DNA of 64,000 nt from Candidatus Iainarchaeum sp. (GCA_043809245.1 JAZDDZ010000047.1:32001-96000); one strand, 5' to 3'; numbered from the stretch's first letter, positions 22,475-63,580 are shown. Notes: generated from the sequence alone by a model not told the origin. Translations and numbers: made by a program.

Positions 22475-22584
22475 TGGCGGGCGGGGAGGGATTTGAACCC
22501 TCGACCTACAGCTTAGGAGGCTTGCAAGAAATGCAGAAAAAACTGTCACCTCATGTTGCCCTATCCAGGCTAGGCTACCCGCCC
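22475..22584 (-). tRNA. tRNA-Arg(CCT) with 32-nt non-canonical intron (22522-22553) at position 29/30; CCA encoded
   Basis: Stems GGGCGGG/CCCGCCC, ACAGC/GCTGT, GAGGG-TTCAAAT-CCCTC; full BHB: AGG/CCT, GCAA/TTGC, GAGGTG/CATTTC with CAT and AAG bulges. Confidence 0.92.
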
Positions 22585-23510
22585 AGCAATTCAATCATCT
22601 TACGTGACCTTATTGCCTTATTGGGGTGGTAAAAATCTATGTTCTGCAAGAATTTAAAAAGCATCTCCTTATTTCTAATTCTTAGCTCGTAAGTATCAGA
22701 TATACGGTCAGAAGAGGGGGATTTTGCCACCCGCTTGTAAATTTTAAGGGTCTCGATGCCAAAGTTTAGAAGGGTCTCTTTAATTTCTTCTATAAACTTT
22801 TTATCCTTGAAAGTGAGATCTATGAAAAGCTGCTTGGCTTTTTTTGGATTTTTTGGTAAAGTTCCATCAGAATCAAATAAACCGGCTAAGTAATATTTTA
22901 GGACTGATTTATCATTTTTAATTAGGCCCGGAATCCTAAGATTTTCTTTTACTCCCCGATTTATCCCGAATATATTATGCAAAAAAGAATTCACAACAAT
23001 GCTCCTTAGCGGGAGACAAGGGATAAATCTTTTAGATAATGTCGATTTAACGCTTATTATTTTCCCCGATAAACCAAAAAGATATTCTGAAATGGAATTA
23101 ACTTTTTCCAACTGTTCCTTGTATTCATCAGAAAAAATAACCCGCTTTCTATCAGAAGTTAAACAACCAGCCCCTTGCAAATACCCGATGAAATACGCTA
23201 AATTCGGATCAAGTTGTTTAGGCAGGTGCACCTTCTTATTTTTTCCCGTAAATTCAACATTATCCAAAGCATAAACTTTAGAAAAAATCGATGAATCAAT
23301 ATTTTTAGCAAATGATTTAAGCACTCTGATTGAACAACAAGGTTTTGTTGTCAAATGCCTATGGTAATAGCCTTTTGAAATGTTTAGGAGATCAGCTGCT
23401 TGTCTACAAGTTAGACCCGAATTCATATGGCTTTCCTTTAGAATTTTAGCAATGCCGAAAATCATCACATTACTGTCAAGTTCTTCATAGTAATCTAGAA
23501 GTTTAGCCAT
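22575..23510 (-). CDS. Free-standing HTH + LAGLIDADG homing endonuclease-like protein
   Basis: LAYFIGYLQGAG and YLAGLFDSDG motifs; N-terminal HTH; stop codon lies within first 10 nt of tRNA-Arg. Confidence 0.85.
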   Translation of the reverse strand: MAKLLDYYEELDSNVMIFGIAKILKESHMNSGLTCRQAADLLNISKGYYHRHLTTKPCCSIRVLKSFAKNIDSSIFSKVYALDNVEFTGKNKKVHLPKQLDPNLAYFIGYLQGAGCLTSDRKRVIFSDEYKEQLEKVNSISEYLFGLSGKIISVKSTLSKRFIPCLPLRSIVVNSFLHNIFGINRGVKENLRIPGLIKNDKSVLKYYLAGLFDSDGTLPKNPKKAKQLFIDLTFKDKKFIEEIKETLLNFGIETLKIYKRVAKSPSSDRISDTYELRIRNKEMLFKFLQNIDFYHPNKAIRSRKMIELLGG

Positions 23511-23583
23511 AAAAAAAGTTAAATTTTAGAGTATATATTAGTTTCTGGACCTCATTTCCTCTGCCAGCCAAAGGTGCAACCAT

Positions 23584-24147
23584 CTAAATTAAAATTGTTA
23601 ACGCTGCAGCGCAGACAAGGGGAATCATGAGGTTGTCGTCAACAGGCAAGTATTCTGCGAGCATTCCGATTACTGCAACAATTATCGCGGCGCTTAATGG
23701 AAATAGCTGCGCCAAGAGCGCGGCTGAAACGATTATTCCCGCGATTGTCCCCTCAAGCGTGTAAGGCGCAACTGTTTTGATTCTCCCAATTGCCTTTCCT
23801 GCAATTGTGGAAATGGTGTCGCCGTAAACAGAAACCAATAGCGCGCCGAAAACGATTTCCTGCCCTGGAAAAAGAAAGACAAGCAGGAAAAAACCAAGCA
23901 AAAAGTACAGCGCGCCGTAGCCCGGAAAATGCTTTTCCTTTTCCCTGCCGAATTTTTGCACAAAAAAATTTATTGCAGGAATATTCGCGCCCCTTTTCAC
24001 AAACCACGAGATAATTATTCCTGTGAGGAAAATCGCGGCAACAGCCAAAAGAAGCAATTGCCTTTCAATGAAAGCCGCGGCCAGAAGAAAAATTGTGCCA
24101 AGCACCGCGTGGAACAGCTTGCGTTTTGTTTCCCTCATTAAAGTCAT
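23584..24147 (-). CDS. Dolichol/phytol kinase-like (CTP-dependent isoprenoid alcohol kinase) membrane protein
   Basis: RKLFH, GD..ST..G..IG, TLEG..AG, DDNL.IP. Confidence 0.85.
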   Translation of the reverse strand: MTLMRETKRKLFHAVLGTIFLLAAAFIERQLLLLAVAAIFLTGIIISWFVKRGANIPAINFFVQKFGREKEKHFPGYGALYFLLGFFLLVFLFPGQEIVFGALLVSVYGDTISTIAGKAIGRIKTVAPYTLEGTIAGIIVSAALLAQLFPLSAAIIVAVIGMLAEYLPVDDNLMIPLVCAAALTILI

Positions 24148-24878
24148 CGCGTTCTGCCCCTAATGAAATTAATTGCTTCACTTAAGCTTTTTTTATTGCT
24201 GTAAGAGCGCACTATTTTTTTCAAGGAAGTTGTTTTCTTGCCTTTGAGTTTTTTTGCCTCTTTCTCCAGCAATGGAATGCATCTAACAACATTGTCAACG
24301 ATTGAAATGTCTGCCTTCTGCGCTGTCCTGCTGAAAGGGTTTAAGTCAACGGCAACAACTTTTTTCCCGTTTTTGCGGAGCGCTTCCGTTCTATCCCCGT
24401 CCTCAAGCATCACAAGCACGCAGTCAGCGCTCCAGATTCCATTTGAGCTGACGAAAGCGCGCTTTGATTCAAGGAAAGCAAGTTTTTTGCCAGGATTAAC
24501 GCCAAGGATTTTTGCGCCGAACTTGGAGAATTCCTTTGCAATAAGCAACTCTCTTTTTCTGCTGCGGTAGAAAAGATTCACTTCAATTTTTGCGCCAAGC
24601 GTTTTGGCGAGCGAAACAATTTCTTTTGCGCACAACGCGGTTGTGTTTCCGTTAACAGAGATTACGGGTTTTTCCGCGAGCAGCAACTGCGCAGCTGCAG
24701 CAGAAATTGCTTTTTTTGCAAACTTCTGCGTTTTTTCCCCTAAAAGATAATCAAATGCCTCGCCCCTCCCCTGTGCAATCATTCCCGCGTGCGCGGCAAT
24801 CCCTTTTTTTGCGGCCTCTTCAATGAGGTGCCTTTGCATTAGCGAATTAAAGCGGGGATGCGATTTCGGCGGCTTCAT
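24144..24878 (-). CDS. 4-phosphopantoate--beta-alanine ligase (archaeal PPS)
   Basis: P.SHPR..SL..R, GRGEAFDYLLGE, SVNGN, LEDGDR, DLNP.SRT. Confidence 0.95.
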   Translation of the reverse strand: MKPPKSHPRFNSLMQRHLIEEAAKKGIAAHAGMIAQGRGEAFDYLLGEKTQKFAKKAISAAAAQLLLAEKPVISVNGNTTALCAKEIVSLAKTLGAKIEVNLFYRSRKRELLIAKEFSKFGAKILGVNPGKKLAFLESKRAFVSSNGIWSADCVLVMLEDGDRTEALRKNGKKVVAVDLNPFSRTAQKADISIVDNVVRCIPLLEKEAKKLKGKKTTSLKKIVRSYSNKKSLSEAINFIRGRTR

Positions 24879-61778: not shown

Positions 61779-62372
61779 TTAAGCGCTTTTTTTCGCAATC
61801 CAGATTCTCTGGAGTGCCGTGAAGTTTGAGAGCACTGCAAGGAAGGCAATAACGTAAACAAGGAATGAAAGGTCAATTGACGCGGCAATGATTCCAGCAA
61901 ACAATAAAATCATTCTCTCAGCCCTCTCCAAAAGACCGCCTTTCAGTTCCTTTTCCACTAATTCTTTTTCTTTTGCCGCAGCCTTAACGTAAGTTGTCAT
62001 CATTGCGCCGAAAAAGTAAAGGAAAAGCCATGCAACAGCCGGAATGAAGAAAAACGGAAGGGAAACGAATAAAAGAGCGAAAACAATTATTGCCTCAATG
62101 TACCTGTCCACAATTGTGTCCAGAAAAGCGCCGAACTTGCTCACTGTGCCTGTAACGCGAGCAACAGAGCCGTCAACAAAGTCAAGGAACGCGGCAACAA
62201 TCAATGAAACCGCGGCAAAAACAAACTGCTGCTGGAAAATGAACCAAAAAGCCGCAATAGCGGGAAGGATTGAGATAAGAGTCCAGGCGTTAGCGCTGAA
62301 GGGGATTTTGCTGAATGCAATGCCTATTTTTACCGACAACTTTTCAAACCTTTCACGGTTCCTGTAAAGCAA
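61779..62372 (-). CDS. CDP-alcohol phosphatidyltransferase (archaetidylinositol-phosphate synthase-like)
   Basis: D..DG..AR......FGAFLD...DR, G..ERAER; near ino1. Confidence 0.88.
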   Translation of the reverse strand: MLYRNRERFEKLSVKIGIAFSKIPFSANAWTLISILPAIAAFWFIFQQQFVFAAVSLIVAAFLDFVDGSVARVTGTVSKFGAFLDTIVDRYIEAIIVFALLFVSLPFFFIPAVAWLFLYFFGAMMTTYVKAAAKEKELVEKELKGGLLERAERMILLFAGIIAASIDLSFLVYVIAFLAVLSNFTALQRIWIAKKSA

Positions 62373-62405
62373 GCATTCACCTTTTATGAGATAATTTTGC
62401 AGTAA

Positions 62406-62418
62406 TTCCGCAGCGGAA
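62406..62418. repeat. Palindrome TTCCGC-A-GCGGAA followed by TACTCCCCC
   Basis: Extended match to 52542-52567. Confidence 0.75.
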
Positions 62419-62500
62419 ATGTACTCCCCCCAAAGCTAAATAAATGCTATTTTTCCAAATTAATAGGAAACAAAGTAGTTAAAATGCTTGGTGATTAAGA

Positions 62501-63580
62501 TTGGAAAATCCTATTTTGACTTATAACGAATTCATAATACATTTCCCATCAATTAAGCCGAAAAGCAAGAGGTTAGCCAACAAACTGTTGCCACTGTATC
62601 CTTCCACTGAACTTGCCCAGATAACTGGCGCCTTGTTGACCGACGGGCATGTCGACTGGTATGTTTCTGACGGCAGTCCGAGAACAAGGAAAATTATTTT
62701 ATACTCAAGCAATGAAGAGGAATGTGAGTGGTTTTCTGGTTTGGTCAAAAAAGTTTTTGCCGTTGAACCAAAAATTACAGCCTATTTGCCAAAATACGGG
62801 CAATTCAAGTTGCAGCCCTACAAAGCGGTCTTAAATAATTCAGTCGTTGCCCAAACAATGATTCTTTTAGGGGTTTGCGCGGGAGACAAAACAAAATGCG
62901 GGTATAAGGTTCCAGAATGGATTCTGAATGGAAACAAGAAGATTAAAGCTGCATTCCTGAAAACTGTTTTTACTTTCGACGGTTCAAAACCATACAAGAG
63001 AAAAAATACGTGGACTATCAGCTATAGCACAACCGTGACAAAAGAAGCCCTGCCTAACGGCTTTTTGCTTTTCAAACAGCTTAACCAACTTTTAAAAGAA
63101 TTCGGCGTAACTTTCAGTTCAATTCCAACAGCACACTTGAAAGAGAATGGGAAATTCATGCTAATATCATCCGCATCATCTAGAGAGTCAATTACTAATT
63201 TTTTACGGAATTTGGGCTATCTTAACGAAAACAAGCAAAGAAGGCTGGCTTACGCGGTTGCTGAAATTTTTAAGCTCGCAAGAATACGCTCTCCAAAAAA
63301 TAACCACTTGTTAAGCAAATTCAAAAAAATTTTTGGAACAGACAAAGAAACAGCTTTTTTTGTTAATAAGCTCCTTAAAACAAAGTATACAAAAAGGCAA
63401 TTTGAGCATTTCCGGAGAAACGAAACAATGGCGCCTTTGGAAATACTTGCCTTAGCGCTGAAAAAAACCAAAACAAAAAATTATTTGCCTGACTGGGCAA
63501 AATTTTTGCACAGCCATTATCTTTCTCTAGTTCCGTTGATGAATTCTTCAACCATTTCTTTGGCTGCAGATGGAGAGTAG
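62501..63580 (+). CDS. Free-standing LAGLIDADG endonuclease-like protein with C-terminal HTH-like segment
   Basis: [12 protein letters not shown] and [14 protein letters not shown] linker. Confidence 0.8.

Follow-up and report, generated by a model that had tools for sequence, protein, structure and literature searches.

Free-standing LAGLIDADG genes at tRNA gene boundaries in a DPANN archaeon: candidate homing endonucleases, each paired with one tRNA

Why does an archaeal genome carry LAGLIDADG genes pressed against its tRNA genes, outside any intron or intein? The question is raised by a 64,000-nucleotide (nt) stretch of Candidatus Iainarchaeum sp., hereafter the window (contig C47:32001-96000 of a genome of 1.48 Mb in 55 contigs), which holds five free-standing open reading frames (ORFs) of LAGLIDADG type, named O1 to O5. 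Homing endonuclease genes (HEGs) are known from introns, inteins and intergenic spots of phages. Our best explanation, drawn from comparison of sequences, is that O1-O4 are free-standing LAGLIDADG HEGs, active now or recently, each settled at the boundary of one particular tRNA gene; we give this reading a probability of roughly 0.6. Throughout, G000 denotes this genome and G001 onward its relatives, C the contigs of G000 and L individual loci; positions without a prefix are those of the window.

Five LAGLIDADG ORFs and the tRNA genes they touch

The five ORFs, the tRNA genes and a tRNA fragment lie as follows.

22478-22584, minus strand: tRNA, probably Arg(CCT), with a ~32-nt insertion; Rfam tRNA, 46.5 bits
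22575-23510, minus strand: O1, free-standing LAGLIDADG ORF of 311 amino acids (aa); LAGLIDADG_3, 61.4 bits; guanine-plus-cytosine (GC) content 0.347
31937-32008, plus strand: tRNA-Thr(CGT), directly upstream of O2 on the same strand; ARAGORN and Rfam
32065-33078, plus strand: O2, free-standing LAGLIDADG ORF of 337 aa from a TTG codon, with an alternative ATG start at 32083; LAGLIDADG_3, 31.5 bits
33079-33112, plus strand: tRNA 3'-half fragment of 34 nt, immediately after the O2 stop; matched by blastn-short to T arms of other tRNAs
51288-52436, plus strand: O3, free-standing ORF of 382 aa with a helix-turn-helix (HTH) domain and LAGLIDADG; HTH_3, 29.8 bits; LAGLIDADG_3, 27.5 bits
52356-52430, minus strand: tRNA-Ile(GAT), convergent with and overlapped by O3, divergent from O4 at a distance of 172 nt; ARAGORN and Rfam
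52603-53547, plus strand: O4, free-standing LAGLIDADG ORF of 314 aa; LAGLIDADG_3, 62.0 bits
53533-53651, plus strand: tRNA-Gln(CTG) with a ~46-nt D-loop insertion; found with our own T-arm/acceptor detector
62501-63580, plus strand: O5, free-standing LAGLIDADG ORF of 359 aa lacking an N-terminal HTH; LAGLIDADG_3, 27.2 bits

All five ORFs exceed the Pfam cut-off for LAGLIDADG_3 (22.5 bits), as do an intact paralog on contig C10 and all 10 representatives taken from relatives, and two LAGLIDADG motifs are recognisable in each of the five translations. The catalytic Asp pair is present in O2 and O4; the acidic residue closing both motifs is kept in O2-O5 and in nearly all of 70 sequences, the exceptions being O1 and otherwise mostly truncated or broken copies. 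In a profile search against solved structures the nearest sequences were PI-PfuI, V-ATPase inteins and I-DmoI. Matches in NCBIfam were limited to endonuclease parts of intein-bearing proteins, far below their cut-offs, and phage records gave only weak similarity, confined to the level of the LAGLIDADG domain. The ORFs have an extra N-terminal region of ~100 aa, for which every ESM Atlas score was below 0.9 in O4 (residues 1-100), and which includes an HTH in some of them: in the window the domain exceeds its Pfam cut-off only in O3 (it also does so in the C10 paralog), with sub-threshold matches in O1 and O2 and none in O4 and O5. GC content is low in all five (0.35-0.40 versus 0.444 for the genome), placing them in the lowest 2-9% of 1-kb windows.

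A sequence-only reading of this DNA had described five free-standing, two-motif HTH-LAGLIDADG ORFs that are not inteins, four of them docked on tRNA genes. The five ORFs and their docking were borne out by the profile searches and the tRNA analysis below; the HTH label holds for O3 and does not carry over to O4 and O5, with O1 and O2 falling below the threshold. No Hint or intein family was found by Pfam in the window ORFs (E<=0.1) or in the 10 representatives from relatives (E<=0.01). An intein reading of the window ORFs was rejected on the lack of a Hint domain, on their length as stand-alone frames of 311-382 aa and on the termini read in their translations. Elsewhere in G000, ~20 other LAGLIDADG_3 matches lie in frames of 510-1708 aa (e.g., on C23, C48, C42, C49, C7, C44, C24 and C16); since we take these as inteins, the genome appears rich in them. 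A 509-aa frame on C8 was judged by eye to be an intein in an IscU-like protein.

tRNA genes were sought with ARAGORN (default settings in the window, introns allowed in relatives), with Rfam and with the purpose-built T-arm/acceptor detector. In the window, ARAGORN reported two, Thr(CGT) and Ile(GAT), and Rfam three, at 22478-22584 (minus strand), 31937-32008 (plus strand) and 52357-52429 (minus strand). Both programs miss tRNA-Gln(CTG) because of the ~46-nt insertion in its D region. This gene was verified in three ways: it aligns with 13 orthologous tRNA-Gln(CTG) genes, it shares a consensus fold with covariation and compensatory changes, and deletion of 41-55 nt makes ARAGORN call tRNA-Gln(ctg). 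The four tRNAs named in the sequence-only reading (Arg, Thr, Ile and Gln) are therefore real, and each touches a LAGLIDADG ORF, as that reading had it. The tRNA beside O1 is probably Arg(CCT), a label given for its likeness to the tRNA-Arg(TCT) of G000, with which it shares nearly identical D and T arms; a deletion scan was ambiguous, returning Arg(cct) most often and other identities as well. In practical terms, some interrupted tRNAs escape standard tRNA finders, and ORFs overlapping tRNAs will turn up in the output of gene callers.

The junctions are tight. O1 and O4 have no stop codon of their own: each enters the 5' end of its tRNA and terminates at a TAG that forms tRNA positions 8-10 (O1) or positions 13-15 of tRNA-Gln (O4). 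O3 crosses the whole of tRNA-Ile in antisense and stops 4 nt past the tRNA 5' end, so that tRNA-Ile, read on the opposite strand, supplies its final ~27 codons. The start of O2 lies 57 nt past tRNA-Thr(CGT), and the O2 stop abuts not a whole tRNA but the 34-nt fragment, which starts near position 38 and comprises the 3' strand of the anticodon stem, the variable loop, the T arm and the 3' strand of the acceptor. A scan permitting 3-kb insertions found no matching 5' half for the fragment within 3 kb; the sole other matching acceptor 5' strand in the genome belongs to a tRNA-Glu(CTC), a distinct gene truncated where contig C2 ends.

The O2 junction invites a different reading: giant tRNA introns might contain the ORFs, or the halves of split tRNA genes might flank them, as with the LAGLIDADG genes of archaeal rRNA introns. 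An ORF followed by a 3' half starting near position 38 would fit it; so would C10, where ARAGORN joins a 5' fragment and a 3' part across the endonuclease ORF as a tRNA with a 1186-nt intron, and a further tRNA of G000, on C49, that has an ORF-containing insertion of ~305 nt. O1, O3, O4 and the C10 copy nevertheless adjoin complete, contiguous tRNAs with 5' ends of their own, the tRNAs beside relatives' ORFs are likewise complete, and the 3-kb-insertion scan yielded only the chimeric C10 call and the C49 gene, without a 5' half for the O2 fragment. This reading is very unlikely, and the earlier placement of the ORFs outside introns stands. The C10 fragment itself (C10:38843-38880; L001:844-881) precedes the endonuclease ORF by ~140 nt; it shares its first 18 nt with the tRNA-Val on C4 and its first 14 nt with the complete interrupted tRNA downstream, and the ARAGORN call is an artefact that fuses fragment and tRNA into a false tRNA-Gln.

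Three small PIN-domain-like genes surround the tRNA-Ile/tRNA-Gln cluster, at 50180-50623 (minus strand), 54067-54501 (plus strand) and 55834-56337 (plus strand); one is confirmed by Pfam (PIN_2) and two are assigned by similarity.

tRNA docking across the genome and among relatives

Is the docking a matter of chance? G000 has eight free-standing LAGLIDADG frames: the five in the window, the intact C10 copy, and truncated copies on C2 and C3. Five of the eight end at a tRNA, either inside one of 44 tRNAs or no more than 60 nt away from one, versus 17 of 1783 other frames of at least 140 aa (Fisher p=9e-9). Ten of those 17 frames, inspected for a size or position of interest, look by eye like ordinary genes or spurious frames, not endonucleases. 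The C10 ORF is followed by a complete, interrupted but contiguous tRNA with its own 5' end, and the copy on C3, a C-terminal piece, is antisense to tRNA-Thr(GGT). The C2 copy, of O2 type, ends after its first domain; the ORF that follows it (L003:2708-3109) is by eye IS200/IS605-type transposase-like.

The comparison was extended to 40 genomes of the same order as G000 (Iainarchaeota, DPANN), every one from another family; relatives of G000 in public records are titled Candidatus Iainarchaeum, Diapherotrites or Forterrea, all DPANN archaea. Loci were collected with O4 as query, taking all sites with an open frame of <=460 aa and choosing them before the tRNA search; this choice yielded 41 loci with 43 frames matching a profile of the G000 proteins. 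By ARAGORN with introns and our detector, a tRNA starts between -95 and +60 from the ORF end at 26 of the 43 frames (18 on the same strand, 8 on the opposite one); at L030, Rfam adds an antisense tRNA cut by the contig end, for a total of 27 of 43, of which Rfam at its gathering score confirms 21. Against the G000 background this gives p=2e-37; p-values in relatives overstate the case because kin are not independent, and the effect is nevertheless very large. The relaxed detector makes many false calls genome-wide, and its unsupported calls at L041 and L043 were excluded from every count; an antisense tRNA at L035, recognised by eye only, stands outside the count as well. The frames of L030 and L054 run off the contig end.

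Beyond the order, three of four free-standing frames abut a tRNA in a metagenome-assembled genome (MAG) titled Nanoarchaeota, three of four have an opposite-strand tRNA 41-79 nt past the stop in a Thermoprotei MAG, and the only free-standing frame fetched from a Diapherotrites MAG abuts a tRNA. The tRNA docking of LAGLIDADG genes is thus much broader than the window.

Each lineage keeps to its own tRNA. A scan with one genome per species found 13 complete O4-type orthologs (40-52% identity) and one cut by a contig end. With G000 included, all 14 complete O4-type genes lie on the same strand as, and directly upstream of, tRNA-Gln(CTG), the first base of their stop codon falling anywhere from 36 nt before the first base of the tRNA to position 38 inside it. 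The counterpart of O3 in G009 (27% identity) lies antisense on tRNA-Ile(GAT) and is joined to it at the same base, which makes two genomes in total. O2-type genes follow tRNA-Thr(CGT) by 57, ~30 and 5 nt in three genomes (G000 and two others); the clade-mates of O2 are L041 and L044. A quick maximum-likelihood tree was computed from 67 of the 70 sequences, the other three falling below 230 aa. Its clades sort by tRNA identity for Gln-CTG, Leu, Thr, Arg-GCG and Gly-TCC; several long branches, O1, O3 and O5 among them, are unsafe.

The upstream flanks of tRNA-Gln(CTG) alleles that have no HEG share no sequence except AT-richness. As these flanks are not conserved, a lineage faithful to one isoacceptor across families would have to be recognising the tRNA gene itself. 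We infer a target inside the tRNA gene, cleavage, copying by repair and immunity of the resident allele. In an allele without the HEG, the enzyme would recognise a site within the conserved tRNA gene and cut there; repair would then copy in the donor's HEG, with the tRNA gene as one of the homology arms. The HEG would come to lie flush with a mature tRNA end, either within the 5' leader or past the 3' end, where tRNA processing would trim it away; we propose that this is why a single-copy tRNA stays functional, and that reading frames run into the tRNA to the first stop because no spacer is left. The resident tRNA allele would presumably be resistant, the site being split by the insertion point or by an intron, or altered by D-loop changes.

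O5 differs in its partner. Rfam detects no tRNA near it (E<=10, 62000-64000); instead, its 3' end overlaps by 64 nt the 3' end of a convergent gene.

63517-64000, minus strand: myo-inositol-1-phosphate synthase gene, 3' part; Pfam Inos-1-P_synth; the conserved gene abutted by O5

An O5 ortholog in G035 (58% identity) has the same geometry at the inositol-1-phosphate synthase gene, and the two synthase genes are 78% identical. Being tied to a protein-coding gene, O5 is not part of the tRNA story; it would work likewise at the 3' end of that gene.

Empty alleles, decay and descent with the host

A mobile gene should be optional, and these are. Nine relatives have a tRNA-Ile(GAT) with no LAGLIDADG frame nearby, mostly with a divergent tRNA-Gln(TTG) 88-250 nt away, and 15 relatives have a tRNA-Gln(CTG) without an endonuclease gene; families f2 and f4 each include one genome with an O4-type gene and one without. 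The empty alleles are partly syntenic with the window: the empty tRNA-Ile is adjoined in G036 by a 63%-identical homolog of the window gene at 49445-49846 (UPF0047-type), and in G001 by a homolog of a PIN gene. From this synteny, O4 looks like a one-gene insertion between a shared spacer and tRNA-Gln, and O3 appears to have been inserted on the far side of tRNA-Ile along with two small genes. A scan of metagenomes with the neighbouring UPF0047-type protein gave only relatives of <=62% identity and no near-strain alleles. Signs of decay accompany the patchy distribution, with the truncated C2 and C3 copies of G000, internal stops in the copies of G008, G028 and G031 and a remnant in G013, where only the last 35-50 codons of an O4-type gene persist right upstream of tRNA-Gln (tblastn E=1e-4).

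Since tRNA genes are classic integration sites (PMC4090602), the ORFs might also be passengers or remnants of integrative elements of the integrase type, for which tRNA genes act as attachment sites. The 5' tRNA fragment upstream of the C10 copy and the 3' fragment after O2 agree with such an origin, and an analogous layout of fragment, element and tRNA, there with a recombinase, is described for Caldiarchaeum (PMC3293823). In our loci, however, a tRNA piece is duplicated in the distal flank at only 1-2 of 30, and no integrase or recombinase was found among the neighbours scanned, which together argue against integrase-type insertion. The synteny points to insertions of one gene (O4) or a few genes (O3), most copies sit at the tRNA 5' end, and it is the ORF itself that touches the tRNA. 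We regard an integrative element as highly improbable.

How the genes descend is more equivocal. Prolyl-tRNA synthetase (ProRS) was compared in five genomes with an O4-type gene and, for ProRS only, in G001, which has none. Identities among G032, G044 and G045 are 82-85% for ProRS and 79-82% for the endonuclease; the respective values are 65% and 51% between G000 and G046, and 57% and 45% between G000 and G032. This pattern is compatible with homing restricted to close kin and also with vertical retention over long times accompanied by losses.

It also feeds the main rival explanation, that the proteins are domesticated: vertically inherited, not mobile, and retained by the host because they perform some task at the neighbouring tRNA gene, for instance in regulation, protection or repair, or in assisting with unusual introns. 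Endonuclease divergence that parallels that of the host ProRS, intact ORFs that persist across genomes whose ProRS is only 57% identical, the conserved adjacency to one specific tRNA and the intron-richness of the adjoining tRNAs are all what domestication would produce; the patchy distribution with many empty alleles, the broken copies and the remnant, and the low GC are not. Only a few of the ~44 tRNAs per genome have such a gene. The catalytic acids are retained, in contrast to WhiA-type domesticated LAGLIDADG proteins, which are not known to have kept theirs. Three genomes moreover have the D-loop intron described below without the gene, so splicing does not need the endonuclease gene. On balance we judge domestication improbable.

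For O1-O4 as HEGs active now or recently, the case is carried by tRNA enrichment, strict pairing, empty alleles, decay, retained catalytic acids, low GC and the lack of Hint domains; the selfish single-gene homing family proposed in the sequence-only reading is partly supported by these, with O5 falling outside its tRNA part through the tie to a protein gene. Hint domains, a lack of tRNA enrichment and a lack of empty alleles, each of which that reading had listed as speaking against homing, were looked for and none was found, and the presence/absence comparison it had suggested did reveal empty alleles at tRNA-Ile and tRNA-Gln(CTG).

Several points weigh on the other side. In the O4 clade, endonuclease identity follows host ProRS identity at a slightly lower level: in this one clade, no excess of endonuclease similarity over ProRS indicates recent transfer between lineages, and spread independent of the host was not seen. 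Given this tracking, the data agree no better with active spread than with long vertical persistence accompanied by losses, and such long retention of intact genes is unusual in purely selfish HEGs. The first motif of O1 lacks the catalytic acid (GAG), the second being intact. Four O4-linked tRNA-Gln genes have no intron, and one of these has a D loop that is also found in alleles without the HEG. As to the data, all 40 relatives belong to other families; counts across related genomes are not independent; and ARAGORN labels on intron-bearing tRNAs are unreliable.

tRNA introns and known homing systems

The tRNA genes that adjoin these ORFs are often interrupted. A homologous D-loop insertion at one position occurs in 9 of 14 O4-linked tRNA-Gln(CTG) genes versus 3 of 15 without the HEG (p=0.025, among kin that are not independent), and one further O4-linked gene has an anticodon-loop intron. 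Of the three interrupted genes without the HEG, one belongs to G013, the genome with the gene remnant, and another to its congener. Among the four linked genes that are intronless, three have D loops that look unusual by eye. More broadly, ARAGORN finds introns in 15 of 25 endonuclease-touching tRNAs and in 4 of 31 other tRNAs of the same loci (p=5e-4, again among kin that are not independent). The D-loop insertion folds into a 4-bp helix between two 3-nt unpaired stretches; a canonical bulge-helix-bulge register could not be fitted to its consensus fold.

This distribution is the one expected, as a hypothesis, if an intron or an altered D loop shields the carrier against its own enzyme and is copied together with the gene. 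A fuller version, which we hold to be doubtful, is that HEGs at tRNA boundaries drive tRNA genes as homing introns drive rRNA genes, carrying ORF-less introns along: intronless alleles would be cut, with the O4 site predicted in the D arm of tRNA-Gln(CTG); the intron would split the site and protect its carrier; and repair would copy gene and intron jointly. The idea that introns protect tRNA genes from invaders goes back to Randau and Soll, as cited in PMC4090602, and the arrival of archaeal tRNA introns is still called an open question in a 2026 preprint (10.64898/2026.10.13.758758).

How do these genes compare with known systems? The closest in setting is SegB of phage T4, a free-standing GIY-YIG endonuclease within a tRNA gene cluster, whose recognition site includes a conserved tRNA motif in the T arm and whose gene is inherited together with neighbouring tRNA genes (PMC2330249). 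SegB shares with the present ORFs a free-standing gene beside tRNA genes that is optional among relatives; it differs in nuclease family, in residing in a phage rather than a cellular chromosome, and in being one gene in one cluster. Here, by contrast, many paralogous lineages, known from sequence alone, are each tied to one isoacceptor and lie flush with or overlap the tRNA.

With respect to introns, the models are collaborative homing, as of F-CphI beside the intron-containing psbA of cyanophage S-PM2 (PMC6083498), and trans homing, as of T4 mobE with the nrdB intron (PMC2790892). In these systems, as may be the case here, a free-standing endonuclease gene adjoins a gene with an intron that contains no ORF and that could both prevent self-cleavage and travel along with the endonuclease gene. 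In our data, such introns in the adjoining, putative target gene are indeed associated with the endonuclease gene (9/14 vs 3/15; 15/25 vs 4/31). Theirs are self-splicing group I introns in protein-coding genes of phages, ours protein-spliced archaeal tRNA introns.

I-DmoI and the other LAGLIDADG enzymes of archaeal rRNA introns and inteins are the nearest solved sequences and share the two-motif single-chain core and the Pfam family; the present genes differ in lying outside introns and inteins, in their extra N-terminal ~100 aa (with an HTH in some) and in having tRNA genes as partners. In fungal mitochondria, mobile endonuclease ORFs occur at gene ends, pressed against or fused to the gene, and sometimes leave a duplicated gene fragment. 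The 3' fragment at O2, the 5' fragment on C10 and the position of O5 at the synthase gene may be compared with these, which are organellar and concern mostly protein-coding genes; duplication is rare here. Finally, tRNA flanks are regarded as safe landing sites for tRNA-gene-targeting retrotransposons in gene-dense eukaryotic genomes (PMC5006619), elements that differ in moving by retrotransposition guided by RNA polymerase III factors, without isoacceptor specificity.

A full-text literature search, whose reach did not extend to subscription journals and supplements, returned no description of LAGLIDADG genes beside archaeal tRNA genes. If the enzymes target tRNA genes, they would occupy a niche that is new for selfish genes, supply natural nucleases specific for tRNA genes, and offer a concrete route for the spread of archaeal tRNA introns. 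If they also carry introns, that route would serve protein-spliced archaeal tRNA introns, non-canonical ones included, and tRNA leaders and trailers would join introns and inteins as the third 'silent' niche open to homing genes.

Further tRNA loci of G000 are unusual in their own right. The tRNA-like gene on C49 (C49:1828-2206; L233:329-707, minus strand) has good acceptor, D and T arms, and its ~305-nt interruption, too long for Rfam to span, encodes an 88-aa ORF with a CxxC...HH...CxxCH pattern that is HNH-like by eye and has no Pfam match at E<=0.01; the locus may represent an archaeal tRNA intron that harbours an endonuclease gene. Two tRNA genes 6 kb apart on C10, one Met-like (C10:42033-42201) and one Gly (C10:48039-48154; anticodon TCC by eye), have near-identical sequence at both ends of their D-loop insertions, which suggests that one intron was copied between them. 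At tRNA-Arg(TCG) on C16 (C16:36561-36814) and tRNA-Ser(TGA) on C31 (C31:3580-3834), ~150 nt of similar sequence is followed by a 21-25-nt repeat of each tRNA's own 3' end, an arrangement that looks like a small element landing at tRNA 3' ends. On C27, two pieces on the minus strand (C27:33849-33884 and 34041-34075) match positions 1-36 and 41-75 of tRNA-Pro(CGG) at 97% identity. Located beside tRNA-Pro(GGG), they are permuted, the 3' piece preceding the 5' one, and may be a permuted or rearranged tRNA gene.

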